Assembly (NCBI GenBank): GCA_963727525.1
Contig: CAVSGO010000007.1
Span: 416,001 to 480,000, forward strand
DNA length: 64,000 nucleotides
Reading direction: 5' to 3'
DNA from: an uncultured bacterium
GTDB taxonomy: Bacteria; Krumholzibacteriota; Krumholzibacteriia; LZORAL124-64-63
Shown: piece after piece, positions 18,500-38,445 of the stretch
Numbering within the stretch: the first letter of the stretch is position 1
How the letters are laid out: each line of letters begins with the position of its first letter
Position numbers and translations under genes: made by a program
The notes under the pieces: generated by a model
Seen by the model: the letters and a program-made list of their open reading frames with translations, nothing else
What the model was told of the DNA's origin: nothing
Database searches by the model: none

Positions 18500-19215
18500 T
18501 GACTGAACGGATCGATACCACCGGTCGGTTCCTGGGAAAGGCCGTGGAGGACTATCTCAAGGCGACCTTGTCCCTGGGCGAGGCCGGCCAGCGGGTCTCG
18601 ACCTCCGCGCTGGCCGAACGTCTCGGGATCAAGCCGCCCTCGGTGACCGCCATGTTGAAGAGACTGAGCCGGGAATATCCTCGGCTCCTGGACTACCAGT
18701 CCCACCAGGGGGTCCGACTCACGAAGACAGGTGAACGAATCGCGCTCGATGTGGTTCGCCGTCATCGACTCATCGAGGTCTTCCTGGTCACGACGCTGGG
18801 ATATCGCTGGGATGAGGTCCACGAGGAGGCCCATCGGCTGGAGCACAGCGTATCGAGTACGTTCGTCGATCGCATCGATCGCCTGCTCGGTTATCCCGCG
18901 GTCGATCCTCACGGCCGCCCCATCCCCCGCGACGACGGCGTGGTCACCGAGCTGGCGGAAATCCCGTTGACTGAAGCGAAGACGGGCGAGACGGTTCGCG
19001 TGTCGAGTGTGCGCTCCGAGGAAGTGGCGTTCCTGCAGTATCTCTCCAGCCTGGGCATTGGCCTCGGTTCGCCCCTCGCAGTCCAGGAGATTTCCCCGCT
19101 GGGAGATGTGATGACGATCGCGGTAGGATCCGACGGTGGTGGTGGCCACCATGTGATCGGTGCGGGAGTCGCTCGCGAGATCTTCGTATCGGCAGAAAAA
19201 GGTGAGTCGACATGA
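18499..19215 (+). CDS. mntR: DtxR/MntR-family metal-dependent repressor with C-terminal FeoA-like domain
   Basis: 'EDYLKA', 'PPSVTAMLKRL', 'RRHRLIEVFL', 'VHEEAHRLEH', 'DPHGRPIP'; TGATG overlap. Confidence 0.92.
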   Translation: MTERIDTTGRFLGKAVEDYLKATLSLGEAGQRVSTSALAERLGIKPPSVTAMLKRLSREYPRLLDYQSHQGVRLTKTGERIALDVVRRHRLIEVFLVTTLGYRWDEVHEEAHRLEHSVSSTFVDRIDRLLGYPAVDPHGRPIPRDDGVVTELAEIPLTEAKTGETVRVSSVRSEEVAFLQYLSSLGIGLGSPLAVQEISPLGDVMTIAVGSDGGGGHHVIGAGVAREIFVSAEKGEST

Positions 19216-21113: not shown

Positions 21114-21454
21114 AATGTCGCTGGCTGGTTCCGACACAGCGCCGGCTGGTTCGACGTGGTTCTCGCCCGGAGGTCCGGGTCGACCGTCGTTGCGACTGCA
21201 AGAGGTCGTGGCACGGGGCATCCGCGGCAGGAAGGCCGTCACGCGGATCGATGGGCAGCGTGACCCGCGGATCTCTCTCCGGGGAGGCTGCGCGACGAAT
21301 CGGCGTGGCGTGGCGAGTGTGAATGGGGTGGAGGCCCCGGCGTTCCGGTGTTAACCTGGCTTCGTCACGGCGGGGGGCCCGGTCAGGTCTCCCGCCTCGT
21401 GTCAGCCCGAGGACTTGCATGGGATTGCCAGACCGGGAAGCCGTCCGTTCCACG

Positions 21455-23359
21455 GTGCGCCGCGACATCGCGATCGTCGTGGTCGTGGCGGTGGCGTTTC
21501 GCGCGCTCTATCTCGCGCTCTACCATGGCTCGCCGTTCTACCACGTCCCCGTCGTCGATGCCTCGACGTTTCGCCTCTGGGCGCAGGCGCTGCACGAGGG
21601 GCACGCTTTCATGCCGGGCGTCTACTTCAAACCGCCGCTCTATCCGTGGCTGCTGGCGGCTTTGATGGGCGTTGTCGGTGGCGCATTGACGCCGGTGTAC
21701 GTGCTGCAGGCGCTGGTCGGTGTTGCGACCTGTGTGTTCACGCTAGCGCTTGGCCGCCGCATCTTCACGCCGCGGGTCGCGCTCGAGGGCGCCGTGATCT
21801 GTGGCTTGCTGCCGGTGCTGCCGTTCCTCGAGTTCCAGCTCCTTGCCGAGTCGTGGACCACCGCGATGATGATGGCGGCGCTCGTCATGTTGCCGCCGCG
21901 GCCGTGGCCGCCGGGGCGGACGATCGCGGCGGGGCTGCTGCTCGGCGTGGCCGCGCTGGGGCGGCCCAATCTACTGCTCGTGCCGGCGTTCCTCGCGGTG
22001 GGGATGGCGTGGCCCTTCTCGGGACGCGGGCGGCTGGCACCGGCCATGGTCCTCGTGCTGGCGACGTGCGTGGGGATCGCTCCCGCGACTCTGCACAACC
22101 TCGCGCAGGGGCACGCGGTGCTGGTGAGCGCCAACGCTGGTGCGAATCTGTGGGCTGGCATCCGGCCGGGCGCCGATGGCACGTCGGCCATTCCCATCGG
22201 GATCCAGTGGGATGATCTCCAGCGGCAGAGTGCGCAGGCGGGGGCGCGCGATGCGGCGGACGCGAGCCGGTATCTCATCGGGCGAACGCTCCACGAGGCG
22301 GCGCAAAGGCCGCTACGCGCGCTGGGTTTGCTGGCGCGCAAGGCCTTGCTGCTCGTCAATGCACACGAGGGGCGCAACAACATCGGGCCCACGTACCTGG
22401 CGCGTCACGAGGGCGTGGTGGTGCTGCGCCGCTGGTGGCCGGGATTCTGGCTCGTGGCGCCGTTCGCGCTGCTGGGCCTCGTCACGCTTGCGCGACCGGC
22501 CTGGTTCGCCGCCGTGCGGCCGCCGGGCGCGGTGGCGCCGCTACTGCTCACGCTCGCGGCGCTGACGGCGTCGATCGTGCCGTTCTTCGTGAATGCTCGC
22601 TTCCGGCAGCCGTTGCTGCCGGTGCTGGCCTTGCTGGCGGCGTATGGCCTCGGGAACGTCCTCGCGGCACTGAGGGCAGGAGGCCGATCCGCAATACGCG
22701 CCGGTGCAGGATTGCTGGTGCTGGCGCTGGTCGTGAACGTCGACTGGTTCGGTGTCGGTCGCGCCGAGACGGGTGCGCGCGACGAACTGAACCTCGCCGG
22801 CATCCTGGCGAAGGGGTGGGCTGGTCACCCGGCCGATCCCGAAGCAGCGCTCGCGCGCTACGCCACGGCGGCCCGGCTCGATCCCGACGACCCGGATGCC
22901 TCCGAGCGCGAGGGGCTCGAGCGCCAGAGCCTGGCGATCGATCTGCTCCAGCGCGCCGAAAAGGCAGGTCAAACCGGCGCCGACGCGGGGCGCTTCGCCG
23001 CGGCCGCGGCCGACCAGCTCCACCAGGCGGTGGCGCTGCACCAGCGTGCGATCGCCCTGTTTCCGGACGCCTTCCGCAGCTACGGCGGCGTCGCCAGCAG
23101 CCGGTCGCTGCTGGGGCGCATCGCTGCGAGGCAGGTGGAGGGCGCCCTCGCGGCCGTCGATTCCACGGCGGCGCGGCAGGCCGCCGTGGTCGCCATCCAC
23201 GAGATGGAGGATGCGGTGGCGGCCTGGCAGGCCGCGTTGCGCCTGAAGCCGGATCTTCCGGGCGCGCATGAGAACCTCGCCGCATGTGTGCAACAGATCC
23301 GTGCGCTGCCGGCTCTCGACCCGGCGATCGCCGCGGCGCAGGCGAAGCTGGTCCGTTAA
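21455..23359 (+). CDS. GT-C (GT39/PMT-like) integral membrane glycosyltransferase with C-terminal TPR-like repeats
   Basis: Multiple TM segments; 'VVDAST', 'YFKPPLYP', 'RPN', 'NLWAG', 'FFVNARFRQP'; helical TPR-like tail. Start uncertain (21419 or 21455). Confidence 0.75.
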   Translation: MRRDIAIVVVVAVAFRALYLALYHGSPFYHVPVVDASTFRLWAQALHEGHAFMPGVYFKPPLYPWLLAALMGVVGGALTPVYVLQALVGVATCVFTLALGRRIFTPRVALEGAVICGLLPVLPFLEFQLLAESWTTAMMMAALVMLPPRPWPPGRTIAAGLLLGVAALGRPNLLLVPAFLAVGMAWPFSGRGRLAPAMVLVLATCVGIAPATLHNLAQGHAVLVSANAGANLWAGIRPGADGTSAIPIGIQWDDLQRQSAQAGARDAADASRYLIGRTLHEAAQRPLRALGLLARKALLLVNAHEGRNNIGPTYLARHEGVVVLRRWWPGFWLVAPFALLGLVTLARPAWFAAVRPPGAVAPLLLTLAALTASIVPFFVNARFRQPLLPVLALLAAYGLGNVLAALRAGGRSAIRAGAGLLVLALVVNVDWFGVGRAETGARDELNLAGILAKGWAGHPADPEAALARYATAARLDPDDPDASEREGLERQSLAIDLLQRAEKAGQTGADAGRFAAAAADQLHQAVALHQRAIALFPDAFRSYGGVASSRSLLGRIAARQVEGALAAVDSTAARQAAVVAIHEMEDAVAAWQAALRLKPDLPGAHENLAACVQQIRALPALDPAIAAAQAKLVR

Positions 23360-24956: not shown

Positions 24957-26342
24957 GTGAACCATCAGTTCTTGCTCCCCGAGGCCTGGATCAATCTGGC
25001 CTACCTCATCGCCGCGGTGCTGTTCATCTACGGCCTGAAGGGGTTGACGCATCCGCGCACCGCGGTGCGTGGGAACTTCCTCGGCGCCGTCGGCATGTTC
25101 ATCGCCATGGTGGCGACGGCCCTGGCCATGGGCCTCGACTACGCATACATCGTCATCGGCATCGTCGCCGGCGGTCTCATCGGCGGTGTGGCCGCGTACA
25201 AGGTGAAGATGACCTCCATGCCCGAGATGGTGGCTTTGTTCAACGGCTTCGGCGGTGCGGCCTCGATTCTCGTGGCCGGCGCGGCGTTCATGGCGATCGC
25301 GCAACCCGGCATGCAGACGACCATCGCCACGGGCCTGAGCGGTCTCATCGGCGGCGTCACCTTCTCCGGCAGCCTCATCGCCTTCCTCAAGCTCAACGAG
25401 ACGATCAAGAAGAACCTGTACTTCCCAGGCCAGCAGGCGCTCAATGCCTTGCTGCTCCTGGGTTCGCTGGCGCTCACGGGCTGGATGGTGGCCGGCGGCG
25501 GGATGATGCCGTACTGGGTGATCACGGCGTTGAGTCTGGCGCTGGGCGTGTTCCTGACCATGGGCATCGGCGGTGCCGACATGCCGGTGGTGATCGCCCT
25601 TCTGAACAGCTACTCCGGCCTCGCGGCGGCGGCCACGGGCTTCGTGCTGGGCAACGATCTGCTCATCATCGCGGGTTCGCTGGTCGGTGCCTCGGGCGTT
25701 ATCCTCACGAACATCATGTGCAAGGCCATGAACCGCAGCTTGCCGGCCGTGCTCTTCGGCAAGTTCGGCGGCGCCAGCGACGGTCCCAGCGCCGACGAGG
25801 TCTACGGCGGCAAGGTGAAGGCCACCAGTCCGGAGGAGGTGGCCATGCTGCTCGATGGCGTGCAACGCGTGGTCATCGTGCCGGGCTACGGCATGGCGGT
25901 GGCGCAGGCCCAGCATGTGGTGCGCGACTTCGGCAACCTCCTCGAGCAGCGCGGAGCCACGGTGGAGTACGCGATCCACCCCGTGGCCGGCCGCATGCCG
26001 GGCCACATGAACGTGCTCCTGGCCGAAGCTGACGTACCCTACGATCAGCTCATCGAGATGGACGACATCAACCCCACGATGGACCAGGTCGACGTGGCCA
26101 TCGTGATCGGCGCCAACGACGTGGTCAATCCGGTGGCGCGTACCGATCCCAGCAGCCCCATCGCGGGCATGCCGATCATCGACGTGGACAAGGCGCGTAC
26201 GGTGGTCGTCGTCAAGCGTTCGCTCAGTCCGGGCTTTGCGGGTATTCCCAACCCGCTCTTCGCCGCCGACAACACCCTGATGATGTTCGGAGACGGCAAG
26301 AAGGCCATGATGGAGCTGAACTCGGCGCTCAAGGAAAACTAG
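24957..26342 (+). CDS. pntB: NAD(P) transhydrogenase beta subunit
   Basis: 'GGADMPVVI..LNSYSG', 'VPGYGMAVAQAQH', 'HPVAGRMPGHMNVLLAEA'. Confidence 0.97.
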   Translation: MNHQFLLPEAWINLAYLIAAVLFIYGLKGLTHPRTAVRGNFLGAVGMFIAMVATALAMGLDYAYIVIGIVAGGLIGGVAAYKVKMTSMPEMVALFNGFGGAASILVAGAAFMAIAQPGMQTTIATGLSGLIGGVTFSGSLIAFLKLNETIKKNLYFPGQQALNALLLLGSLALTGWMVAGGGMMPYWVITALSLALGVFLTMGIGGADMPVVIALLNSYSGLAAAATGFVLGNDLLIIAGSLVGASGVILTNIMCKAMNRSLPAVLFGKFGGASDGPSADEVYGGKVKATSPEEVAMLLDGVQRVVIVPGYGMAVAQAQHVVRDFGNLLEQRGATVEYAIHPVAGRMPGHMNVLLAEADVPYDQLIEMDDINPTMDQVDVAIVIGANDVVNPVARTDPSSPIAGMPIIDVDKARTVVVVKRSLSPGFAGIPNPLFAADNTLMMFGDGKKAMMELNSALKEN

Positions 26343-26389: not shown

Positions 26390-29300
26390 TCAGCCGAGAT
26401 GCCGCACGAGGCCGCCCCACGCGCGGTCCACGTCGAACCCCTGCCGTCCGAAGAATTCAAGCAAGCTGAAGTGCGTGCGCACGAGGGTGTGCCCCTCCGC
26501 CGCCATGCGGCGGCAAAAGTCGTCGATGAGCGCGCGTGCCAGACCGCGACCGCGCAGCGTGCGCGTCACCACCACGCCCTCGAGATGGGGCTCGCTGCCG
26601 GTGTCGGGGCGGTAGACGATGCCGCCCACGAGCTGTTCGCGCGCGTCGAGCACGAGCAAGTGGTGGTCCTGCGCGCTGATCGAGAGCGGAAAACCCGAGA
26701 ACAGGAAGAGTCGGTACAGGCGTCCGATCTCTGCCGGCGTGCGCGGCTCGAGGCATTCGTAGGTGCTGCCGCGGTCGTCGGTGAGCGTGGTGCGCAGCAC
26801 CACGTGCCGGCGCTCACGATCGCCCACCGTGGTCACCTGCGGTTGCTGCTCCTCGGTGGCGTGCGGGAATGCGAGGCGACGGAACGCGAGGCGGTCGTCC
26901 GCATCGTCGAGGGCGTTCTGCAGATCCGACAGCTCCACCGTCTGCGCCGCGCGCAGCCCGGCCGACTGGAAGAGCCGCTTCTGCAGGCGCGCGAACGCGT
27001 GCGCCACTTCCGGACTCGCGTCGGCGAAGTAGGTGCGCCGGTACAGGGCATAGCGCGCCGGTTCGCCGAGGTCGGTGAGATGATAGAGGCGGGCAAGAGC
27101 CTCGAGCTGATCGACGCGGGCCGCCGGCGACGCATCCGGGTTGGCCGCATGCCAGGCGCCGTAGCGCGCGATCGCATTCTCCAGCGCCAGCGGTGGCCGG
27201 TACTGCTCGGCGAGTTGCGCGATGAAGGCGCCCACCGTCGCCGGGAAGTCGGGCCCCGCCTCGGGCAAACCCTCCTGGGCGAGGTCGCGCTCCAGCTCGA
27301 CGAGGAACGCTCTTGCGTCTGTTGGTCCCAGGGCCTCGGCCACGGCCTCGAGCACGAACGTGTCGCGGATGTGCTCGGCGCATCCGGGATAATGGTTGGC
27401 CGGTAGGTGCAGGAAATTCTTGAGCAAGGGGCGCACCAGGGAGAGGGGCCCGCGGTAGGGCTGCGACCCCGCGAGGTTGATCACGAGGCGGTCCTCGCGC
27501 CAGTCCGGGTCGGGCACGATCACGTTGGTGGGCATCACCGTGCCGGGGATGAGCCGGCGATTCCCGTGCAACCACGCGCGCAGCATCGTCGCGATGCCGG
27601 CCACGAGCAGATGGCGCCAGCCCGTGGCATCCAGCGGATGCGACGCGTCGGGCTGGGCATGCATCCTGATGCGATCCCACACGGCCAGCTCGCTCTCGAA
27701 GGCGAGCGACACGGCGCCCAGATCGGGCCTGATGTAGCCGAATCGCGGCACCACCGGATTACCCTGGGGATAGGCGCGCATCGCGATCATCCAGTAGAAC
27801 GTGCGCATGACCTCGAGATCGTGCAGATCGTCGCGGATGATCACCATCAGGTCGTAATGGCTGCCGCCCGCCAGGTTGATGCTCACGCGGTAGCGCGCCG
27901 AGAAGTGCTTGGACACCGTCCGGCTGATCCAGATGCCGCCGGCCGGGATGTCCTGGGGGTCGAGCGTCTCGCTGAACGCGAGCTGCACTGACCCTTGGAG
28001 GAATGTGGTGCCCACGATGACCCGCTGCAGACGCGCGATCTCGGCCTCGCCCAGGCCGTCCTGGTAGGCCAGCTTGCCGGACCAATCGCCGTCGTGCTGT
28101 CCCTTCGCGATCAGGGTGTGCTCGTACCAGGCACCCAGGTCCTGGAGATGGCGCAGGGCGCAGGCGGCCAGTTCGGGATCGCGGTCGAAGACGATCCAGC
28201 AGGCCAGCTCGCGGCGTACGGTGGAGTAGTACTCGATGTTCTCACGGCCGAATTCCGTGAGCAGGCGCAACAGATCGGCGAACACGGACCGTACGGCGGG
28301 CGTGGCGGGCCAGCTCAGCCATTCCCGGTAGCGGTGCAACCGCCGTCGGAGCGCGAGGAGCCGGCGCGACTCGAAGCTCGAGTGTGCGATCGTCGCGATG
28401 CTGTTCTCGCAGAGGAACGATTTGCCGGAGTAGATGAACGCCGGCAGATAGCGATCGTAGTCGGGTTCGGGCTGGTCGAGCAGCAACGCCAGATACGCCT
28501 GGCAACGCAGATCCTGGCGGGGGTGGTTCGCCATGGCCTCCAGCCGGCGGCGGATGACCGCGGCCTCGTGCGGCGGCGCCTGGGGCAGGCGGCCGACGAG
28601 GGTGGCGGCGGCCACGCGGGCGGAGGCCGGTTTGCCATAGAGGAGATCCCGGCAGAGCAGGTCGAGCTGGGCGAGGCGCGGGTCGAGATAGAGGGCGCGC
28701 GGCGCCACCTCGGTGTCGTCCGTGGTGCGTTCGGGAAGCAGCACCTGGTCGGACACCTCCTCGAGCCCATGATCCCAGCCGCCCTTGCATGGCAGGAATG
28801 TCGTCAGCGCCGGATTGCCGAGCCACAGCAGGGGCTGCTTTGCGAAGAGTCCCAGGTCGATGCGCGCTTCGCCGCCGGCGAGGTGATATTCCAGGTTGCC
28901 GATGCGCACCCAGCCCGTCCGCTGTCCACGCGCCAGCGGCAGGTGCACGCCGCGGCGCGTGTCGATGAGGCCGTCGTCGTCGACGCGGATCGTGTCCTCA
29001 AGCGCGGACAGGTCGCGTAACACCCACCGCGGCATGATCACCTCATGGCCCTGCCAGGTCAGCTCCCGCCGGTCGCTGCGATACAGATCCTCCACGACCG
29101 GTGCGAAGTTCCGCGTGATCTGCTTGCGCCGGTACGAGTCCTTGGGCGTCAGCTCGCCCTGTTCCGCGTCGAAGTCGCGATCGAGCAGCGCGAAGCCCAC
29201 GACGCGCTCGTATGGGGCCAGGTCGAGGTTGGCCTGGGTGATGAGGCGCTGGAAGTATTCGTGACGCTCGGTCGGCGCAAGCGCCTGCAGGATCGGATCG

Positions 29301-30958
29301 TCGTCGTCGGGCACGATGAGCAGCGTGTTGTAGGCGCGGCCATCGCCAGCCAGGAAGGTCCTTGTGATGCCGGGCGTCCCTTCGAAACGCGCCTCCACCT
29401 TGCGCGGCGCGATGGTCTGGCCCCGATTGTTCTTGTAGATGTCCTTGATGCGATCGACGATCTGCAGGTGGTCGCCGGGCAACACGCGAAAGAGGTCGCC
29501 GGTGCCGATCCACACGTCGTCGGCCTCGGGTCGTTCCACCGTGAGGTCGCCATGCGGGGCGTCCTCCTCGAGGTAGCGCGCCACGTAGGGACCGGCCACA
29601 CGCAACTCGTCCTGGTCGCCGAACGCCACGCGCACGCCGGGCAGCGGGATGCCCACCGATTCCTCGACGTATTCGCCCGGCGGCGTCATCGTCAGGCCGC
29701 CCGTACCCTCGGTCATGCCGAAGCCGCTGCACAGCTCCACTCCGTGGCGCTGGAAGAAACGGAACACCACGGGATCGAGATAACCGGCCGCCGACAATCC
29801 CCAGCGCAGGCGTCCTCCCGTGACCTCGTTCAGCGCCACGCCTGGATCGCCCTCCTCGCCAGCCACGGCGAGTGCGCGGTCGCGAAGCTGTTGCCAGCGC
29901 AGCGGCACGCTGATCATGCCTGTGGGGCGCACCAGCGGCATCTGGTTGAGCAGCGTCTCCACCGAGGGGTTGCCCGCGAAGACGTACGTGCCGCCCCAGG
30001 AGAGCATGCCCAGCAGTTCGAGATAGCGTCCGAAGGTATGGAACAGCGGCAGGTAGCTGAGCAGCGTCTCGTCGTTGCCCACGCGTGGCAGCGCCGCGGC
30101 GCGCGCGAAGCGCTTGCTCACGAGGTTGAACTGCGAGAAGGCGATGCCCTTGGGACGGCCCGTGGACCCGCTCGTGAACATCACGGTGCAAGGCTCTCGC
30201 AGCGAGAAGCGCGGGCGCTCCGCCAGCCGACGGTCGACCTCGTCGCTCTTCAGGTCGGCGAGCGCTGCCTCGAGGAGTACCGCATCCGCTCCGCCCGTGG
30301 GCACGGAGCTGATCAGGTGGATCCGCGGCGGGCGCACGGCCTGGTCGCGCACCTCGAGCGCGCGCTGCAGCAGGTCGGGACCGTCGACCACGAGGTCGGT
30401 GATCGCCAGGCGGTCGCTGATCCAGGTGAGCGAATCCGTCGACTCGTGCACGCTGAGCGGTGTGACCAGGATGTCGTGCAGCAGGCAGGCGAGGTCGCAG
30501 CATGCCGACTGCAGGCCGTTGGTGGCGACGATCGCCACGCGCGGACGCCCGGGGGCCGTGGGATGGGGTGCGGCCCCGGGATCGGGTCCCAGGAAGTGCG
30601 CCGCCAGTTGCCGGGTGCGCCGGCGCACCGTGGCGTACGACCAGGCCGGTTCGCCCGGTTGACCGAGGTCGCGCAGGTAGATGCGCTCGCCCCGCTCGGT
30701 TGCCCGCCAGTCCATGAGACTGGCCAGGGTGAACCGTGCGCGCTCGATCGCGTCGAAAACGACCTCCGCCCAGGCATAGCGGGCGGAGCGATCGGGCAGG
30801 GCGCCCAGGAAGGCGGCGTTCGCGGTGGTCGTGAGGAAGCGGTGCCAGAGGTCGGGGTCATCGTCGGTCTCGGCCCGGGCCGCCGCGAGGATCGCCGCCG
30901 CGTCGCCGGTGGTGTCGGCGAGCCATGCGGCGAGGCGCGGCGCCAGACCTTCGTTCAT
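26390..30958 (-). CDS. 1522-aa multidomain protein: long-chain acyl-CoA-synthetase-like (AMP-binding) domain, uncharacterised middle region, C-terminal GNAT acetyltransferase
   Basis: 'MFTSGSTGRPKG', 'YLPLFH', 'GFGMTE', 'TGDL', 'DRIKDIYK'; GNAT motif A 'VTRTLRGRGLARAL...FFGRQGF'; ATGA overlap with hemY. Confidence 0.85.
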   Translation of the reverse strand: MNEGLAPRLAAWLADTTGDAAAILAAARAETDDDPDLWHRFLTTTANAAFLGALPDRSARYAWAEVVFDAIERARFTLASLMDWRATERGERIYLRDLGQPGEPAWSYATVRRRTRQLAAHFLGPDPGAAPHPTAPGRPRVAIVATNGLQSACCDLACLLHDILVTPLSVHESTDSLTWISDRLAITDLVVDGPDLLQRALEVRDQAVRPPRIHLISSVPTGGADAVLLEAALADLKSDEVDRRLAERPRFSLREPCTVMFTSGSTGRPKGIAFSQFNLVSKRFARAAALPRVGNDETLLSYLPLFHTFGRYLELLGMLSWGGTYVFAGNPSVETLLNQMPLVRPTGMISVPLRWQQLRDRALAVAGEEGDPGVALNEVTGGRLRWGLSAAGYLDPVVFRFFQRHGVELCSGFGMTEGTGGLTMTPPGEYVEESVGIPLPGVRVAFGDQDELRVAGPYVARYLEEDAPHGDLTVERPEADDVWIGTGDLFRVLPGDHLQIVDRIKDIYKNNRGQTIAPRKVEARFEGTPGITRTFLAGDGRAYNTLLIVPDDDDPILQALAPTERHEYFQRLITQANLDLAPYERVVGFALLDRDFDAEQGELTPKDSYRRKQITRNFAPVVEDLYRSDRRELTWQGHEVIMPRWVLRDLSALEDTIRVDDDGLIDTRRGVHLPLARGQRTGWVRIGNLEYHLAGGEARIDLGLFAKQPLLWLGNPALTTFLPCKGGWDHGLEEVSDQVLLPERTTDDTEVAPRALYLDPRLAQLDLLCRDLLYGKPASARVAAATLVGRLPQAPPHEAAVIRRRLEAMANHPRQDLRCQAYLALLLDQPEPDYDRYLPAFIYSGKSFLCENSIATIAHSSFESRRLLALRRRLHRYREWLSWPATPAVRSVFADLLRLLTEFGRENIEYYSTVRRELACWIVFDRDPELAACALRHLQDLGAWYEHTLIAKGQHDGDWSGKLAYQDGLGEAEIARLQRVIVGTTFLQGSVQLAFSETLDPQDIPAGGIWISRTVSKHFSARYRVSINLAGGSHYDLMVIIRDDLHDLEVMRTFYWMIAMRAYPQGNPVVPRFGYIRPDLGAVSLAFESELAVWDRIRMHAQPDASHPLDATGWRHLLVAGIATMLRAWLHGNRRLIPGTVMPTNVIVPDPDWREDRLVINLAGSQPYRGPLSLVRPLLKNFLHLPANHYPGCAEHIRDTFVLEAVAEALGPTDARAFLVELERDLAQEGLPEAGPDFPATVGAFIAQLAEQYRPPLALENAIARYGAWHAANPDASPAARVDQLEALARLYHLTDLGEPARYALYRRTYFADASPEVAHAFARLQKRLFQSAGLRAAQTVELSDLQNALDDADDRLAFRRLAFPHATEEQQPQVTTVGDRERRHVVLRTTLTDDRGSTYECLEPRTPAEIGRLYRLFLFSGFPLSISAQDHHLLVLDAREQLVGGIVYRPDTGSEPHLEGVVVTRTLRGRGLARALIDDFCRRMAAEGHTLVRTHFSLLEFFGRQGFDVDRAWGGLVRHLG

Positions 30959-32409
30959 GTGACCGCCTCCACCGAAGCCAGATATGCGCGGACGCGCGCG
31001 GCCACCGCCGGCGCCTCCTTGGCGCAGGCATTCACGGCGATGCCGTGGTAGGCGCTGCCTGCCAGCATGAGCCCCGGCGTGCGCACGAGCGCCCGCTCCG
31101 CCGCCGCGAGCCGCGCCAGGTGGCCCACCTCGTACTCGGCGATGGCCTCACGGTGGCGAAATACCCACGCGCGCTCCGGCCGTCCGCGCACGCCGTAGAG
31201 CGCATCCAGCTCGGCCGTAGTGCGCGTCACGATCTCGTCGTCGTCGAGATCGAGCCAGCCTGGGTCGCCGGCCATGCAGCGCAGAAGCACCTTGCCCTGC
31301 GGCGCGCGGCCTCGCCAGATGCTACTCGTCCACAGGACGCCGAGCAACGGTCGCTTCTCGCCGCTGGGGGTGAGCATGCCGAAGCCGTCGAGGGGATGCG
31401 TCACCTGGTCGCGCGCGAAGGCCACGGCGACGACCGTGATGGGATTGTAACGGATCCCACCCAGGAGCGTGCGCACCTTGGCGTCCGGCTGGTGCCGGGC
31501 GGCCGCGTGAGCCGGGGTGGCGTCCACGACCGCGGCGAACGGCCCCTCCCGACCGCGTGGGCCATGCAGCTGCCAGCCGCCATCCGTGGCCACGAGTTCG
31601 CCCACCGGCCAGCCGGTATGCACGGGTTCCGGGAGTGTCGCCGCGAGCTGTCGCGGCAGGCTGTCGATCCCGTCCACGAAACTCGTGAGCACGCCCTTCG
31701 GCGCGGGCGTGGGCGCGTCGCTGCCGCCGGCCGCGTCCCGGCGCTGGCGCCGCTCGCGGCTCTTCTGCCGGCCGATCGCGAAGAGTGCGCGGAACAGGCC
31801 GCCATGATCGCGTTCCAGCTCCACCATGCGTGGAAACGCTGCGGCCAGGCTCACCCGGCGGCTGTCGCCACCCGTGATGCCGCGCACCATCGGGTCGAGC
31901 ATCACGTCGGCGAAGGCGCGGCCGAGACGTCGGACACCGAAGGCGTGCACTGTCTCGTCGCTGTGCGGATCCTCGGCCGCGCGGCCGAGATCGCGGCGGG
32001 CCGGGATCAGCGGCTCGCAGAGGATGCGCAGCTTGGCGCCTGGGCCGAAGAGGTCGCAGCCGAGAAACTGCCCCGGCGTGGTGGGCACCTCGCGTAGCTT
32101 GCCGCCGTGGACGATGTAGCGGATCCTGGCCGCGTCCTCGCTGCGCAGCAGCGAGTCGGTGAGGCCCGCGCGTGCGGCGATGGCCAGCGTGGCGGGTTCG
32201 CTGTCGAGGAAACCGTTCGGCCCCCATTCGATGAGATAGCCGTCCTCGCGTGTCGTACGCAGATTGCCGCCTACCGTGTCGGCAGCCTCGAACACGGCGA
32301 CATCCACGGGCGCCACCGCGCCATCGTCGGGAAAGGCGAGGGCGTGGGCGATCGCCAGCCCGGCGACGCCACCACCGAGAACCGCGACGCGTGATGGTCG
32401 TTCGTTCAT
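30955..32409 (-). CDS. hemY: HemY-type protoporphyrinogen/coproporphyrinogen oxidase
   Basis: GGGVAGL FAD motif, 'VGGNLRT', 'EWGPNGF', 'AAFPRM', 'GIAVNAC'; ATG at 32409 overlaps the hemH stop. Confidence 0.92.
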   Translation of the reverse strand: MNERPSRVAVLGGGVAGLAIAHALAFPDDGAVAPVDVAVFEAADTVGGNLRTTREDGYLIEWGPNGFLDSEPATLAIAARAGLTDSLLRSEDAARIRYIVHGGKLREVPTTPGQFLGCDLFGPGAKLRILCEPLIPARRDLGRAAEDPHSDETVHAFGVRRLGRAFADVMLDPMVRGITGGDSRRVSLAAAFPRMVELERDHGGLFRALFAIGRQKSRERRQRRDAAGGSDAPTPAPKGVLTSFVDGIDSLPRQLAATLPEPVHTGWPVGELVATDGGWQLHGPRGREGPFAAVVDATPAHAAARHQPDAKVRTLLGGIRYNPITVVAVAFARDQVTHPLDGFGMLTPSGEKRPLLGVLWTSSIWRGRAPQGKVLLRCMAGDPGWLDLDDDEIVTRTTAELDALYGVRGRPERAWVFRHREAIAEYEVGHLARLAAAERALVRTPGLMLAGSAYHGIAVNACAKEAPAVAARVRAYLASVEAVT

Positions 32410-33527
32410 CGGGTGCCTCCAGCCGCCCCCGCGGACGCCAGGGACGGGAAGCAGCGGTGCACGAGCTCGTCGGCGAGGGATCGCAGCCAGCCGTCGTGCA
32501 GGTTGAGCGCCGGCACCCGGACGAACTCGGTGACGCCGGCATCGCGAACGGCATGGCCCAGTTCGTTGTCCAACTCGTCGAGGGTCTCGATGTGATCGCA
32601 GGTGAAGCTCACCGGCACCACCACGAGATGGGTGACGCCGCGACGGGCCAAAGCCACGCACGAGAGTTCCGTCGGCGGACCGACCCAGCGCACCGGTCCC
32701 ACCTTGCTCTGGAATGCCAGCATCGGCGCGGAGCCGCCCGCGGCGAGCCCATCGGTCCACGTTCGCGCCGCGGCGAGCTTGTCGCGCACGCGGGCGTGCA
32801 CGCTCGCCACGGTGGCGCGGGTCTGCCGTACGTAGGGATCGCCGTGGCGCACGAACCGTTCCGGCAAGCTGTGCGCGGTGTAGACGAGCGCGCAGCGCTG
32901 CGGATTCACACCCTCCGCGTGCCAGCGGGCAAGCGGAACGGCGGCATCGCCGGCGAGTGCCGCGAGGTAACCGGGCAACAGGGGCCACTCACGCAGCGCC
33001 CGCAACGGCAGCCTCGGTTCTGAAGTCTGCATAACCCGTTCCAGCTCGGCGAGGCTCGAGCCTGTCGTGGCGGCGCTGTATTGCGGGTACGTGGGTACAC
33101 CCAGGACTTGCCGGGCTCCGTACTCGCGCAGCGTCGCCAGCGCCTCGTCGGTGAACGGATGCCAGTACCGCATGGCCACGCCGGCCACCACGTCGATCTT
33201 CCGCGCACGCAAGAGGTCGACCAGACGATCGGCCTGACGGCGCGTCCAGTCGAGCTGGGGGGAGCCGCCGCCGTGCCCCAGGGTGCTGTAGCGCTCGCGC
33301 ACGGCGTCCACGCGGCGGCGCACGATGAGCTTGCCCACCGGTCGCGAGAGCCAGGCGGGCAGCGGCAGCACCATCGGGTCGGCGAAGAGGTTGCTCAGGA
33401 ACGGTCCCACGCTCTCGGGGCCGTCCGGACCCCCCATGCCCAGCAGCAGCAGGCCGGTGCGACGCCGGGGGTCGAGGGGCGCGGCAGGAGGCAGCTTTGG
33501 GGTGAACCTCACGTCGGGATCCCTCAC
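32406..33527 (-). CDS. hemH: Ferrochelatase
   Basis: 'LLLGMGGP', 'GGGSP', 'AMRYWHP', 'YPQYS', 'AHSLP', 'FQSKVGP..WVGP', 'DHIETLDELD'; GTGA overlap with hemN. Confidence 0.94.
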   Translation of the reverse strand: MRDPDVRFTPKLPPAAPLDPRRRTGLLLLGMGGPDGPESVGPFLSNLFADPMVLPLPAWLSRPVGKLIVRRRVDAVRERYSTLGHGGGSPQLDWTRRQADRLVDLLRARKIDVVAGVAMRYWHPFTDEALATLREYGARQVLGVPTYPQYSAATTGSSLAELERVMQTSEPRLPLRALREWPLLPGYLAALAGDAAVPLARWHAEGVNPQRCALVYTAHSLPERFVRHGDPYVRQTRATVASVHARVRDKLAAARTWTDGLAAGGSAPMLAFQSKVGPVRWVGPPTELSCVALARRGVTHLVVVPVSFTCDHIETLDELDNELGHAVRDAGVTEFVRVPALNLHDGWLRSLADELVHRCFPSLASAGAAGGTR

Positions 33528-34897
33528 ACGGTGCGCGAGAACAGGGGCCGATCGCCGCCGCCGGTCAGATATGCGTCGAACGGCATGCTCACGTTGCGCA
33601 GGAAGAACCGACCGAGGTCGGTCACGCGCAGCCGGTCCGCTTCGCGGACCACCAGCCCATCCTCGATCAGCGGGTCCATCTGCGCCAGCGCTTCGGGTAG
33701 CAGCTCGTCGACCGTCGCGTCGAATCTCGGCACGGTCACCGCGTAGGGAAGCTCGAGGTTGCACATCAGGTGCAGGATGACCAGGCGGCGCAGCTTATCG
33801 TCGGCTGACAGGTGCATGCCTTTTACCACGGGAAGCCGACCGGCGTTCACGGCTTCCTCGTACTGGCCCACCTCGGTGACGTTCTGGCTGAAACGATCCT
33901 GCACGTCGCTGATGGCGCTGTTGCCCACAGCCAGCAGATCGAGCGCCGGTCGCGTGGTGTAGCCCATGAAGTTGCGGTGCAGACGCCGCTCGGCCAGGGC
34001 CACGGCCAGCTCATCGTCGGGCCGTGCGAAGTGGTCGAGCCCGATCCAGGTGTAGCCGGCCTCCGTCATCGATTCCACCGCGAGTTGGTAGAGGGCGAAG
34101 CGGTTCTCGCCACCTGGCAGCGCCGAGGCGTCGATGCTGCGCTGGTTCTCGCGCGCCCAGGGTACATGGGCATATCCGAAACAGGCCAGACGATCGGGGC
34201 CCAGCTCGATCACGCGATCGAGGGTGGACTTGAACGTCTCCAGGTTCTGGTGGGGTAGGCCATAGACGATGTCCAGGTTCACGCTCTCGAACCCGGCGTC
34301 GCGGCAGGCCTCGTAGAAGCGCACGGTGAGCTTCTCGGGCTGCACGCGTCCTATCGCCACCTGTACCTTCCGGTCGAAGTCCTGCACGCCCATGCTGATG
34401 CGATTGAAGCCCAGCTCGCGCAGGAGGTGGGCCTGCTCGACGGTGCCCAGGCGCGGGTCGGCCTCCAGCGAGACCTCCGCACCCGGCTCGAAATCGAAGC
34501 GATCGCGGATCAACTGCACCGTGCGCCGGATCTGATGCTCCTTGCCGTAGTTCGGCGTGCCGCCGCCCCAGTGCATCTGCACCACGGAGCGGCGTCCGAC
34601 GATGCCGGCCACGATGTCCAGCTCGCGCTCCAGGCTGTCGAGATAGTGATCGCTGTCACTCTTGTCCGTCGGAACTGCTGCATTGCAACCGCAGTACGCG
34701 CATCTCTTCACGCAGTACGGAAGGTGGACGTAGAGGCTCACGGGGCGGTCGGATATAGCGCCCAGCTCGCGCAGGGCGGTCCGCTGATCGGCCTCGTCGA
34801 AGGTGTCCGACCAGGCGGGCACCGTGGGGTAGCTCGTGTATCGCGGTCCCGGCTTGTCGAGCCGGTTCAGCAGATCGGGGGAAATGTCGACGCGCAT
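33524..34897 (-). CDS. hemN: Oxygen-independent coproporphyrinogen III oxidase (radical SAM)
   Basis: 'GPRYTSYPT', 'YVHLPYCVKRCAYCGC', 'HWGGGTP', 'GLDHFA', 'RNFMGY'. Confidence 0.95.
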   Translation of the reverse strand: MRVDISPDLLNRLDKPGPRYTSYPTVPAWSDTFDEADQRTALRELGAISDRPVSLYVHLPYCVKRCAYCGCNAAVPTDKSDSDHYLDSLERELDIVAGIVGRRSVVQMHWGGGTPNYGKEHQIRRTVQLIRDRFDFEPGAEVSLEADPRLGTVEQAHLLRELGFNRISMGVQDFDRKVQVAIGRVQPEKLTVRFYEACRDAGFESVNLDIVYGLPHQNLETFKSTLDRVIELGPDRLACFGYAHVPWARENQRSIDASALPGGENRFALYQLAVESMTEAGYTWIGLDHFARPDDELAVALAERRLHRNFMGYTTRPALDLLAVGNSAISDVQDRFSQNVTEVGQYEEAVNAGRLPVVKGMHLSADDKLRRLVILHLMCNLELPYAVTVPRFDATVDELLPEALAQMDPLIEDGLVVREADRLRVTDLGRFFLRNVSMPFDAYLTGGGDRPLFSRTV

Positions 34898-34901
34898 CGA
34901 T

Positions 34902-35948
34902 CTATGCCTCCACGCGGTGTCCGTGCACCGTCTCGACGACGGCTTCCACCGCGGCGATCGGCGTCTCGGGAAGGATCCCGTGGCCGAGGTTGAATACGTG
35001 GCCAGCCGCGAGGTCGCCCGCACGGCAAATGGCTTCCGTGCGCCGGCGTACTTGCTCGAGGTCGCCGAACAGCACGGTGGGATCGAGATTGCCCTGGAGC
35101 GCCAGGTCCGGCGCCTGCCGGGCGGCCTCGGCGAGGTCGCAGGTCCAGTCGAGGCTGAGCGCATCTGCGCCCACGTCGCGCAAAGCCGTCATGTGTGCCA
35201 GTCCGCCCTTGCTGAACAGGATGCGTGGTACTCCCAGCGGCGCCAGGCGCGCCATGATCGTGCGCAGGCGCGGGGCGACGACGGTCGCGTGATCGGCCGG
35301 ACTCAGGATGCCCGCCCAGCTGTCGAAGACCTGCACCGCGTCGGCGCCGGCCTCCACCTGCATCGTGAGATGCCGGGCGACCTGCTCCGTGAGTATATCG
35401 AGCAACGTATCAAGGAGTTCCGGCCGGGAGTAGAGCATCGTCTTGAGGTGGCGGAACTCCTGGCTACCGCCGCCCTCGATGAGGTAGGCGGCCAGGGTGA
35501 ATGGCGAACCGGCGAAGCCGATCAGGGGCTTCGTCCCGATCTCGGCCTTCACCATCCGGATCGCCTCGGCGACGAACCCGAGGCTCTCCCGCGGGTCGAC
35601 GACCTTCAGGGCGCGAATCGCCGCCTCGTCGCGCACCGGCGCGGCGAGTTTCGGCGCGCCGTGCGAAAAGTCGAACGTGGCGCCCATCGGCCCGAGCGGC
35701 GTGAGGATGTCGCTGAAGATGATGCCGGCGTCGAGGTCGAAACGCCGCAGGGGCTGGAGCGTGACCTCGCACGCCAGCTCCGGTTGCGTGCATACGTCAT
35801 GGAAGCTGGCGCGTTCCCGTACGGCGAGATATTCGGGCAAGTATCGCCCCGCCTGCCGCATGATCCACAGGGGACGATGGCGGGGGCGTTCACCACGCAG
35901 GGCGGCCAGAAACGGCTGCGGAGTCGTCGATGGGTCGGTCGTCTTCAT
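34902..35948 (-). CDS. hemE: Uroporphyrinogen decarboxylase
   Basis: 'WIMRQAGRYLPEY', 'IIFSDIL', 'GFAGSPFTLAAY', 'FNLGHGI'. Confidence 0.96.
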   Translation of the reverse strand: MKTTDPSTTPQPFLAALRGERPRHRPLWIMRQAGRYLPEYLAVRERASFHDVCTQPELACEVTLQPLRRFDLDAGIIFSDILTPLGPMGATFDFSHGAPKLAAPVRDEAAIRALKVVDPRESLGFVAEAIRMVKAEIGTKPLIGFAGSPFTLAAYLIEGGGSQEFRHLKTMLYSRPELLDTLLDILTEQVARHLTMQVEAGADAVQVFDSWAGILSPADHATVVAPRLRTIMARLAPLGVPRILFSKGGLAHMTALRDVGADALSLDWTCDLAEAARQAPDLALQGNLDPTVLFGDLEQVRRRTEAICRAGDLAAGHVFNLGHGILPETPIAAVEAVVETVHGHRVEA

Positions 35949-36035: not shown

Positions 36036-37274
36036 CTATGGCCGGTGCCAGACCGCCATTTGCGCGCCGACCGCGAGGAGCAGGAGCCCAGCGGCGAGCG
36101 GATAGGGGACCGCCAGCATACCGGTGCCTTTTACGGCGAGTCCGGCCAGCAGCGGCGGGAGGAATCCGCCCGCGCCCACCAGGGCCTCGTGGATCCCGGC
36201 GTTGCGCCCTCGCCCGGCCGGGAGTACCAGGCTGAAGTGGAGGCTCGCGGCATAGGCGATGCCGCAGCCCAGCCCGACGAGGGGTACGGTGAGGAGCAGA
36301 AGGCCGAACGGGTGCAGGATCGGGACCACCACCAGGGCAGCGGCGGCCAGCCCCTGCGGGAGCCACAATCGCCCGGGTCGGTGCGGAACTCGCAGCGGAC
36401 CCAGGAGCAGCACGAAGACCAGGGTCTGGCTGACCAGGATGCCGGCCAGGTAGAAGCCATATTGCGCCTCGCTCCAGCCCCGTGACTCGAACCACTGGGG
36501 GAGGTGGTACGTGAGGATCCCGAAGGCGCCGTAGGCGGCCGTGTTCGCGATCCAGGCCATGGTCCGCAGCCGGCGCAGGTGGCGGACATCGTCTTCGATC
36601 TCGCCATCGGGGGAGGGCTCCTCGTTCCGGGCAGCCGCTGCCGCGTCCGACGGGTCCACGGGAGCCGACGCTGGCACGCGGCGCGGCAACGCAAAGAAGG
36701 CGGCGGCCACGCTCACGGCCCCGACGAGAAACGTCACGGCGAACCCGAAGCGATGCAGGAGCAGACCGCCGAGCAGGAACCCCAGCGTCTTGCCGCTGCT
36801 CCATGCCACGTTGAAGCGCCCGAGGGTACCCTGCCGGGTCGCCGGTGTCGCGAGATCCCCCAGCGACGATTGCACGGTCGGCCAGTAGAGCGCCTTGCCG
36901 AGTCCCATCAGCAACTGCAACGCGAGGAGCATCGTGAGCGACCTGGTCTGCAGCGCCAGAAACGCGCAGGTGATCAGCAGGCCACCGCCCAGGCCGCAGA
37001 GTCGGATGCGGCTCGTGCGGTCGCTCAGGACACCGGCGGCAGGAGCGGCAAGCACGTAGCTCACGGCTCCGATGGTGGGCATCAAGCCGAGATCGACGGC
37101 CCCGCCTCCGAGCGCGAGAACCTTGAAGGGCATTGCGGCCATGATCAGGAAGAACCCGCCGTCCATCGCGGCGGCCGAGAGGAAATACCCACGCAGGGCG
37201 CGGGACAGCACCGTCGCACGCGGTCGGGGGCCCGGGACCTGCGACCGCGACTGTGCTGAATGGAGCAAGATCAC
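36036..37274 (-). CDS. MFS transporter
   Basis: About 12 hydrophobic segments; motif A-like 'GVLSDRTSR'; start uncertain. Confidence 0.8.
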   Translation of the reverse strand: MILLHSAQSRSQVPGPRPRATVLSRALRGYFLSAAAMDGGFFLIMAAMPFKVLALGGGAVDLGLMPTIGAVSYVLAAPAAGVLSDRTSRIRLCGLGGGLLITCAFLALQTRSLTMLLALQLLMGLGKALYWPTVQSSLGDLATPATRQGTLGRFNVAWSSGKTLGFLLGGLLLHRFGFAVTFLVGAVSVAAAFFALPRRVPASAPVDPSDAAAAARNEEPSPDGEIEDDVRHLRRLRTMAWIANTAAYGAFGILTYHLPQWFESRGWSEAQYGFYLAGILVSQTLVFVLLLGPLRVPHRPGRLWLPQGLAAAALVVVPILHPFGLLLLTVPLVGLGCGIAYAASLHFSLVLPAGRGRNAGIHEALVGAGGFLPPLLAGLAVKGTGMLAVPYPLAAGLLLLAVGAQMAVWHRP

Positions 37275-37275
37275 G

Positions 37276-38229
37276 TCAGTCGCCGACCTCGGTGGTCCGG
37301 AAGCGGTCGCGCAGGAGACCCTGGCGCAGACCATGCGCGCTCACCACGAGCGACGAGCACGCGAAGCGGTCCATGATGGCCGCCACGATCAGGGCACCGG
37401 CCAGGATCACGTCGGCGCGACCGGAGTGCAGCCCCTTGATCCGGCGCCGCTCGGCCACGGTCGATTTCTGGTAGAGTGCGATCTGTCGCTCCACCTCGGC
37501 GCGTGCCAGGAGGTGGCCGTGGATCGACGCCGCGTCGGCCAGGGGCTGGCCGAGTTGCACGGCGCCGAGGGTGGCCGGCGTGCCGCCGATCCCGACGAGG
37601 AGATCACCGTACGGTTCCTTCCCGAAGGCGGCGAGGTCGCGTGCGATGCGTGCGCTCGCCTCCGCCACTGCGGCGGCGGCCGGCGGGTCTCCGGTGAGGA
37701 CGTTCTCCGTCGTCGAGAGCGCGCCGATCGCGAGGCTTGCTCCTCCCAGCATGTGGCCGGGACGTCCCCAGCACAGCTCCGTGCTGCCCCCGCCGACGTC
37801 GAAGGTCACGAGTTGCGTGTCGGGCTGAGTGCCGGGCAGCTCCAGGCTCGCGCCGATGAAAGACAGGCGGGCTTCCTCACGCCCGCTGATGACCTCGAGA
37901 GTCAGCCCGGTCTCGCGCTTCACCTGCGCGATGAAATCGTCTGCATCGCGCGCCTCGCGCAGGCATTGCGTGCCGACCATCGCCGTCGCCGCGCATCCGT
38001 AGTCGGCGAGCATCTCGGCGAACGAGCGCAGGGCCTCGATCGACCGCTCGCGGGCGGCCGGATCGAGCGTGGTACGCGAGGAGAGGCCGCGGCCCAGGCC
38101 GGTAATCGCCACGCGGTCGAGCAAGGGGCGAAAGCGAAGGGTGCCGCGTTCGGTCTCGCGTGCGACGACGCGCAGCTTCAGCGCGTTCGTGCCCACGTCG
38201 ATGGCGGCGAAACGAGGCGGGGATAGCAT
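37276..38229 (-). CDS. ppx: Ppx/GppA-family exopolyphosphatase
   Basis: 'AAIDVGTNA', 'ISGREEARL', 'DVGGGSTE', 'GLRQG'. Confidence 0.92.
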   Translation of the reverse strand: MLSPPRFAAIDVGTNALKLRVVARETERGTLRFRPLLDRVAITGLGRGLSSRTTLDPAARERSIEALRSFAEMLADYGCAATAMVGTQCLREARDADDFIAQVKRETGLTLEVISGREEARLSFIGASLELPGTQPDTQLVTFDVGGGSTELCWGRPGHMLGGASLAIGALSTTENVLTGDPPAAAAVAEASARIARDLAAFGKEPYGDLLVGIGGTPATLGAVQLGQPLADAASIHGHLLARAEVERQIALYQKSTVAERRRIKGLHSGRADVILAGALIVAAIMDRFACSSLVVSAHGLRQGLLRDRFRTTEVGD

Positions 38230-38416: not shown

Positions 38417-38445
38417 AATATAGGACCCGCATCTGGAGGTGTCAA
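38417..38445 (-). promoter_or_regulatory. Sigma70 promoter for tRNA-fMet
   Basis: TTGACA-N17-TATATT on the minus strand. Confidence 0.8.

Follow-up and report, generated by a model that had tools for sequence, protein, structure and literature searches.

A multidomain bacterial protein family that joins an ANL synthetase, a cryptic kinase-like fold and a GNAT domain, and its lineage-specific attachment to haem genes

The stretch of DNA analysed here, 64,000 nucleotides (nt) of a Krumholzibacteriota contig (CAVSGO010000007.1, assembly GCA_963727525.1) and hereafter called the window, encodes at 26390..30958 on the reverse strand a protein of 1522 amino acids (aa) with an ATG start, named X (P0001), whose gene is the last of a haem biosynthesis operon. 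X carries an N-terminal domain of the AMP-forming ANL synthetases and a C-terminal GNAT acetyltransferase domain. ANL synthetases and GNAT acetyltransferases are the textbook regulatory pair of bacterial lysine acetylation and, to our knowledge, they are known only as separate proteins. We give a probability of about one half to the reading that X represents an uncharacterised family of self-contained, cytosolic multidomain enzymes, in which the ANL and GNAT parts cooperate in cis, and that it is not an enzyme of the haem pathway. In the mechanism proposed, the ANL domain would adenylate a carboxylic acid and form the acyl-coenzyme A (CoA), and the GNAT domain would pack on the ANL C-terminal subdomain and work with it in cis. 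Between the two, a beta domain, a HEAT-like solenoid, a kinase-like domain and a helical bundle very probably form a rigid scaffold. A natural ANL-GNAT fusion can be considered a “Rosetta stone”: it could show how both enzymes engage, or it could bring to light an acyltransferase able to produce the donor that it uses.

The ANL part of X (this and all further domains of X lie on the reverse strand) was recognized by Pfam above the curated thresholds, which places it in the ANL superfamily. The AMP-binding domain spans residues 83-456 (29591..30712; PF00501, 149.7 bits against a cut-off of 29.9), and it is followed by the C-terminal subdomain AMP-binding_C_3 at residues 512-628 (29075..29425; PF23562, 33 bits against 20.8). 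The motifs of the superfamily can be read along the chain: A3 as T262-S-G-S-T-G with K270, then H307, A5 as G412-F-G-M-T-E417, A7 as T486-G487-D488, and the A8 hinge D502/R503/K505/D506 just before the C-terminal subdomain, within which lies an A10-like stretch, E602-L-T-P-K606-G-S-x-R-R611-K. Conservation was counted in an alignment of 112 full-length homologues, 9 of 121 proteins (fragments or shorter forms outside 1450-1620 aa) having been omitted. Each of T262-S-G-S-T-G, K270, H307, GFGMTE, T486-G487, D502, R503, K505, D506, K606 and R611 is found in 111-112 of the 112 proteins, and K270, H307, GFGMTE, the four hinge residues, K606 and R611 in every one of them, which argues that the ANL domain is under selection for catalysis. 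K606 is thus invariant, but the ELTPKGS context is unlike the usual A10 forms, and its equivalence to the A10 lysine is read from the sequence and not from an alignment to a solved structure. The closest relatives by sequence are PRK06187 (1e-31), FadD11 (2e-29) and the CAR structure 6oz1 (1e-23), with the C-terminal subdomain included in the match; from these relatives, the substrate is probably a medium- or long-chain fatty acid.

The GNAT domain occupies residues 1374-1522 (26393..26839) and is supported by both fold and family, with Acetyltransf_1 matched at residues 1427-1508 (32.7 bits against a cut-off of 20.7). Its motif A, R1469-G-R-G1472-L-A1474, conforms to the R/Q-x-x-G-x-G/A consensus. 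The pair of domains that had been seen in a first-pass annotation of this DNA, an N-terminal ANL and a C-terminal GNAT with an RGxGxA motif, was therefore confirmed, as Pfam places both above cut-offs and RGRGLA is found at 1469-1474. Of the 112 homologues, 105 keep G1472, 95 have A, G or S at position 1474 and 71 have R, K or Q at position 1469, and R1484 is invariant; this pattern is compatible with CoA binding. The best structural matches include protein acetyltransferases (GCN5, PCAF and NatD), tied with small-molecule ones.

Contact between the two domains was predicted by modelling ANL residues 60-640 (alignment A3) together with GNAT residues 1374-1522, next to three controls and with alignments built by us. 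The median score was 0.74, compared to 0.02 for the best control; 116 of 157 solved complexes attain this mark, as do 2 of 215 mismatched pairs. The runs share at least 70% of contacts, with a partner predicted local distance difference test (pLDDT) value of at least 72. The predicted interface brings residues 524-530 and 555-579 of the ANL C-terminal subdomain against GNAT helix alpha-1 and the loop that follows it (1405-1431). On the ANL side G530, Y568 and N577 do not vary, and conservation is at least 90% for F525, V528, P529 and A576; on the GNAT side, in the numbering of P0121, G783 and Y786 are invariant and P776, L785, R787, F789, G793, S799 and D802 are at least 90% conserved. Since the interface residues are conserved on both sides, they lend independent support to the predicted docking of GNAT on the ANL C-terminal subdomain.

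The approximately 770 residues between the ANL and GNAT parts have no Pfam match (630-1420). For this region the Pfam search gave no family for the window copy and only chance-level matches for 61 members, and a profile search of the PDB gave no credible match. An AlphaFold2 model of residues 630-1522, calculated with an alignment (A1) of the window copy and 60 relatives, reached a pLDDT of 88.1 and a predicted template-modelling score of 0.85. The chain in this model begins with a beta-rich domain, continues as an alpha solenoid and an alpha/beta domain, and ends with a helical bundle that precedes the GNAT. The beta-rich linker (residues 630-755, 28694..29071; strands within residues 2-111 of P0121) matches no family. 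The solenoid (residues 760-951, 28106..28681) appears HEAT-like from the model, from Foldseek and from a sub-threshold HEAT_2 match in the homologue P0240. Residues 972-1237 (27248..28045) form the alpha/beta unit, which has the bilobal fold of protein kinases according to structure comparison, and residues 1238-1364 (26867..27247) form the modelled bundle that links it to the GNAT. In Foldseek, the solenoid and the alpha/beta unit together resemble the helical and kinase units of VPS34/PI3K, with low template-modelling scores of 0.2-0.33. The best scores in the ESM Atlas (0.92 and 0.91) were unnamed clusters of 526-542 aa, possibly fragments of the X family, and DUF6206 scored 0.84, which is a lead only.

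The kinase-like domain gave no sequence-level match to any kinase family in the Pfam and PDB profile searches. Its L-I-P-G-x-x-x-P-x-N loop aligns position by position with the L-I-H-G-D-x-x-x-x-N loop of small kinases, which we take to put the catalytic Asp at residue 1140 of X. Among the 112 homologues this position is Leu in 27, Met in 22, Ala in 21, Thr in 11, His in 8 and Asp in 3, so that the catalytic Asp of an HxD/HRD loop is present in three proteins only, and the usual pair of a beta-3 Lys and a helix-C Glu is not conserved in this set either. Other residues are kept: N1145 in 111, D1152 in 109, P1138 in 111, G1139 in all 112, R1024 in 111, N1028 in 107 and H1034 in 111. As far as can be placed from secondary structure, they surround the usual nucleotide cleft, being located on strands beta-2 and beta-3 and in the catalytic loop. 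N1145 and D1152 would be the candidates for the metal-binding Asn and the DFG-type Asp, although D1152 follows N1145 by 7 residues, a spacing shorter than in usual kinases. The domain is read as a conserved ligand-binding pseudokinase or a non-canonical enzyme. A role in tRNA modification was considered, prompted by Bud32 as the best kinase match and by TsaD lying two genes away in three Acidobacteriota loci, and it was set aside as no further support was found. Domain parsing of this kind retained the ANL and GNAT parts given in the first-pass annotation and added the kinase-like domain and the solenoid, which it had missed within the middle 770 residues.

The extent of the family was followed with several searches. 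A word-indexed search with residues 630-1522, in which 8000 candidates were scored, gave 186 proteins at E <= 1e-3; among the matches listed (120), most are 1500-1580 aa long with the same Pfam set, the source names are only “GNAT family N-acetyltransferase”, “AMP-binding protein” and “long-chain acyl-CoA synthetase”, and no characterised member was found. A profile of the middle region (421 residues) gave 310 matches at E <= 1e-3 among 1.84 billion representatives (50% identity clusters), nearly all of them at about 950-1450 of proteins of 1470-1710 aa, or in fragments. Since matches to the middle profile lie nearly always inside full-length proteins, the sequences point to one coherent and narrow family, whose three parts always stay together; four of the most divergent members (1600-1710 aa) retain ANL and GNAT. 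X occurs in 82 of the 208 genomes of the window's phylum (76 of 90 in the Krumholzibacteriota family f1), in a single copy in the source genome. In a scan of one genome per species, 228 stretches encode a relative. The best 80 of these 228 are all metagenome-assembled genomes (every carrier known so far is uncultured), labelled Krumholzibacteriia/-ota, Gemmatimonadota, Acidobacteriota, Eisenbacteria, Polyangiaceae/Deltaproteobacteria, Latescibacterota and “Fibrobacteraceae”, and overall the architecture was found in Krumholzibacteriota, Gemmatimonadota, Acidobacteriota, Myxococcota and others. The family is thus common in poorly known phyla, it bears only generic names in databases, and its pseudokinase is cryptic to sequence searches.

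How the ANL and GNAT parts of X might cooperate can be considered by reference to the AcsA-AcuA system. In this system a GNAT binds its ANL partner and transfers an acetyl group to the A10 lysine in the C-terminal domain of that partner (PMC11255334), and AcuB is reported to be a sensor of energy charge (PMC13121692). The option that we tentatively put first, at well below even odds, is that the GNAT of X acylates a lysine of its own ANL C-terminal subdomain, which by analogy would make X a one-chain equivalent of AcsA-AcuA with built-in feedback; the kinase-like domain would then be a nucleotide or ligand sensor in the manner of AcuB. The second option, more doubtful, is that the GNAT uses acyl-CoA made by the ANL part on client proteins recruited by the solenoid. 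Below these two stand, in decreasing order, a synthase of small N-acyl molecules, a lysine acetyltransferase in which the other domains are pure sensors, and a haem-specific regulator. The comparison of loci described below found no partner gene conserved across phyla, which fits a self-contained enzyme.

Among the alternatives to the main reading, the one that survives best, although it is unlikely, is that X is a small-molecule or lipid N-acyl synthase: the ANL domain would activate a fatty acid and the GNAT would move the acyl group to an amino acid or another amine, giving an N-acyl or lipoamino acid that is perhaps exported. ANL and GNAT enzymes cooperate in mycobactin lipidation (FadD33/MbtK), and the ANL part of X resembles long-chain acyl-CoA ligases. 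Neighbouring genes in Krumholzibacteriota would also suit such a product, namely a sodium-dependent (SNF-type) transporter, which 25 loci have on the same strand upstream, FadL and a GDSL lipase, which are nearby in 10 and 4 loci, respectively, and an MFS transporter directly before X or the hem block in 9 loci. However, none of the SNF-type, FadL, GDSL and MFS neighbours is kept outside the phylum, the protein acetyltransferases among the structural matches of the GNAT point elsewhere as much as the small-molecule ones point here, and the 770-residue scaffold of solenoid and kinase-like domain would be left unexplained. Somewhat less probable still is a sensor of the Pat type, in which the ANL and kinase-like domains would be inactive ligand sensors with no task but to gate a protein lysine acetyltransferase, in the manner of the NDP-forming synthetase-like domain of Pat/PatZ. 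In Pat this domain is described as of the NDP-forming type and catalytically dead (PMC8556138). In X, by contrast, the ANL catalytic motifs are invariant across the 112 homologues, which argues for turnover and not mere binding.

The haem operon calls for separate consideration, as the first-pass annotation proposed that X senses an acyl compound and acts on Hem enzymes. As that annotation described, hemE, hemN, hemH, hemY and X form a chain held by a 4-nt gap and GTGA/ATGA overlaps; the junctions were re-read, with a 4-nt gap between hemE and hemN followed by three 4-nt overlaps (GTGA at hemN/hemH, ATGA at hemH/hemY, and ATGA shared by the hemY stop and the X start). The genes, all on the reverse strand, are hemE, uroporphyrinogen decarboxylase (34902..35948; PF01208), hemN, oxygen-independent coproporphyrinogen III oxidase (33524..34897; TIGR00538, 517.5 bits against a cut-off of 325), hemH, ferrochelatase (32406..33527; TIGR00109, 230 bits against 125), and hemY, of the protoporphyrinogen oxidase family (30955..32409; TIGR00562, 224 bits against 98). 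The last three were named by NCBIfam equivalogs above cut-off and hemE by Pfam.

The generality of this arrangement was assessed in 96 loci: the window, 60 near full-length matches from the phylum with up to 20 kb around each (truncated matches being omitted), and 35 non-duplicates of the best 80 of the 228 stretches. Genes were called with our own caller, trained for each locus on the guanine-cytosine (GC) content of X by codon position, which recovers the gene map of the window; they were clustered by blastp, and one representative of each neighbour cluster was named by Pfam. A locus was regarded as informative if it had at least 1.5 kb of upstream sequence (n=75). A hem gene stands directly upstream of X in 7 of these 75 loci: in the window and five loci of genus g15 it is hemY, and in L099 it is hemH without the others. 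Elsewhere this place is taken by an OmpR-type response regulator together with its kinase (22), by a divergent block of DsbD_2 / P-type ATPase / cbb3 oxidase (14), by MFS (3), by CydA (2) or by unrelated genes (26), with no gene called in one locus. Outside Krumholzibacteriota no hem gene was seen in any of the loci, which were drawn from the best 80 of the 228. A maximum-likelihood tree calculated from 94 X proteins puts all seven hem-linked rows into one clade of ten (Shimodaira-Hasegawa-like approximate likelihood-ratio test, 92), the other three rows being two loci that lack upstream sequence and one unlinked locus. In four of four other, more or less complete genomes of the family that were checked (G124, G164, G082 and G167), hemH lies on a contig other than that of X. 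Three sister loci have the MFS orthologue directly upstream of X and no hem genes, as if the hem block had been inserted between the MFS gene and X. With seven linked loci in a single clade and no link elsewhere, the hem attachment is a rearrangement of one lineage and not a property of the family; within the hem clade, translational coupling would give X co-expression with haem synthesis, but it does not define the function of the family.

The distribution of genes between genomes leads to a similar view. Within the phylum, every family with X also has ferrochelatase, but a family with ferrochelatase need not have X: the counts for hemH and X are 7/7 and 0/7 in family f2, 8/23 and 0/23 in f8, and 10/13 and 1/13 in f9. 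Nor is X confined to genomes that make haem. Six of the 82 genomes with X have no ferrochelatase match, and among them the three of genus g17 (G117, G118 and G119; 75, 94 and 92% complete) keep X and also lack a hemE (URO-D) match. If X were a regulator directed at haem, acylating HemE, HemN, HemH, HemY or a porphyrin and so controlling haem synthesis, then the tight coupling to hemY in the window and in five of five g15 loci, the lone hemH of L099 and the presence of ferrochelatase in 76 of 82 genomes with X, compared to 41 of 126 without it, would be in its favour. However, this co-occurrence tracks family f1 and is not independent evidence, and together the restriction of hem-linked loci to one clade, the separate contigs of hemH and X, the genomes with X that lack ferrochelatase or hemE, and the hem-free loci outside Krumholzibacteriota make such a regulator improbable. 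The proposal that X regulates Hem enzymes or belongs with the haem pathway has thus lost the conserved linkage on which it depended, and the result corrects an attractive but lineage-specific inference about haem.

A broader proposal, to which we would likewise assign long odds, would make X the founder of a sixth type of protein acyltransferase in bacteria: its ANL, being live, would produce the acyl-CoA and pass it in cis to the GNAT behind a pseudokinase gate that reads a nucleotide or metabolite, and in the window's clade X would have been wired into the haem operon by translational coupling so that acylation of haem-pathway or respiratory proteins follows haem synthesis. As to an artefact, in which an error of assembly or of gene calling would have fused an ANL gene to a GNAT gene, P0018 (902 aa) and P0024 (1034 aa), both on long contigs, lack the ANL N-domain, and L061 (8107-10005, genome G021) has one in-frame stop in its ANL part and a long branch in the X tree, so that either a decayed gene or an error of sequencing may be seen here; but X is one uninterrupted frame with a coding GC pattern throughout (0.72/0.47/0.88 by codon position, as expected in a 68% GC genome), and the same full-length architecture of 1500-1700 aa recurs in more than 100 independent assemblies from several phyla, which rules out the mis-assembly that the first-pass annotation had allowed for and leaves this explanation a negligible chance.

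Several points weigh against the reading of X as a self-contained enzyme outside the haem pathway. The matches behind the ANL substrate are weak and all lie below family cut-offs. The A10 region of X, ELTPKGSYRRK, differs from PxxxxGK, the motif recognised by Pat-type enzymes, and the role given to the kinase-like domain is drawn from its fold and conservation alone. The score of the complex model, obtained with our own alignments, may owe to memory of known ANL-GNAT pairs; in addition, K606 is absent from the named interface contacts, and the model therefore does not show the pose of AcsA-AcuA. In the hem-linked clade, the 4-nt overlap of hemY and X is kept in six of six loci (the window and the five of genus g15) despite only about 52-66% protein identity, so X may have a functional tie to haem in this lineage. 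Finally, many Krumholzibacteriota loci put X beside genes for respiratory haem proteins.

Neighbours of X often concern iron, haem proteins or respiration in Krumholzibacteriota (L043-L059 and others; L042 and L017; L004-L009). They include a divergent DsbD_2 / P-type ATPase / CcoNO / CcoP / FixG set in about 11 loci, cydAB in two, and DtxR-FeoA with FeoB in two, as well as convergent NifS / NifU / FeS-assembly genes in genus g15 and Rrf2 regulators. This neighbourhood may be inherited synteny and not function. In 14 Krumholzibacteriota loci (L011, L019, L023, L029, L041, L043, L045, L046, L048, L051, L055, L057, L058 and L060), a gene for a 519-aa protein lies directly downstream of X on the same strand with a median gap of about 62 nt; in its product, an N-terminal half that resembles CydA (partial Cyt_bd_oxida_I) is joined to cytochrome c domains. 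It is followed by a gene for a 364-aa protein that has no Pfam or NCBIfam match, and these two genes turn up together in separate subclades of the tree of X. The g17 genomes are of low GC content (0.43-0.44), and there X (L054 and L056) stands beside a pyruvate:ferredoxin oxidoreductase gene. In two Myxococcota loci (L119, 12926-19171, and L116) five same-strand genes follow X, for a response regulator, a Rex-like protein (CoA_binding and Put_DNA-bind_N), a histidine kinase with an Fe-hydrogenase-like domain, a hybrid PAS kinase and a radical SAM/BATS protein, which judged by their domains make up a redox-sensing neighbourhood. The neighbour genes cl5, cl9, cl7, cl22 and DsbD_2 received no name from NCBIfam, and the two-component system upstream matched only generic OmpR/PhoB- and PhoR-like models, with scores under the cut-offs.

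Within the window, pntB (24957..26342, forward strand) converges on the 3' end of X, which makes X the last gene of its operon, and a weak terminator-like hairpin lies 3' of the X stop codon. At the other end, an MFS transporter gene identified by Pfam (36036..37334, reverse strand) precedes hemE by 174 nt. Between 26000 and 38500 a single sigma-70-like promoter was matched, by consensus only, at 38417-38445 (reverse strand, 11 of 12 positions) upstream of a Ppx gene; transcription of Ppx-MFS-hemENHY-X could begin there. Two other composite proteins are encoded on the forward strand of the window: one of 633 aa (19212-21113), an Nramp metal transporter (residues 58-411) with a C-terminal universal stress protein domain (500-633), and one of 678 aa (21323-23359) with a PMT_2 glycosyltransferase domain and C-terminal TPR.

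When X is compared to known systems, no description of a protein with ANL, kinase-like and GNAT parts was found in the open-access full texts searched, and the X family is an undescribed variant of ANL/GNAT enzymology with a cryptic pseudokinase. Five types of GNAT protein acetyltransferase from bacteria are described, and in the accessible portions of these reviews an AMP-forming ANL or a kinase-like domain is reported for none of them (PMC11254643; PMC8556138). The type I/II enzymes Pat, PatZ and PatA differ from X, which has an AMP-forming ANL with intact motifs and a kinase-like domain; Pfam and NCBIfam show in X only the AMP-forming ANL, and no NDP-forming acyl-CoA-synthetase-like domain of the Pat/PatZ kind. 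Of the original suggestion of an undescribed acyltransferase class or an activate-and-transfer enzyme, a self-contained enzyme that activates and transfers, or that regulates itself, remains the best reading, and X fits none of the five types; the link to haem is not supported. Bud32/PRPK, the RIO atypical kinases and the APH/choline-kinase-like kinases differ from the kinase-like domain of X, which has no sequence match to them, has the catalytic Asp in 3 of 112 homologues and does not conserve the Lys/Glu pair. The bifunctional AAC(6')-Ie-APH(2'')-Ia consists of two active, independent drug-modifying domains and no ANL, whereas X is encoded by a conserved single-copy chromosomal gene in housekeeping contexts. 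FadD11-like long-chain fatty-acid CoA ligases and CAR A-domains are the best sequence relatives of the ANL part, but the scores are far below family cut-offs, and X has no carrier or reductase domain and bears a C-terminal extension of 900 residues. The Bacillus AcsA-AcuA pair (with AcuB/AcuC), so far as the available text describes it, is similar to X in that an AMP-forming ANL and a GNAT form a physical pair, the GNAT of X being predicted on the ANL C-terminal subdomain. It differs in that K606 is outside the predicted interface of X, that no deacetylase is linked, that the ANL of X is of the long-chain/FadD11/CAR type and not Acs, that the spacer is a solenoid with a kinase-like domain in place of a CBS/ACT protein, and that in X all the parts are held in one chain of 1522 aa.

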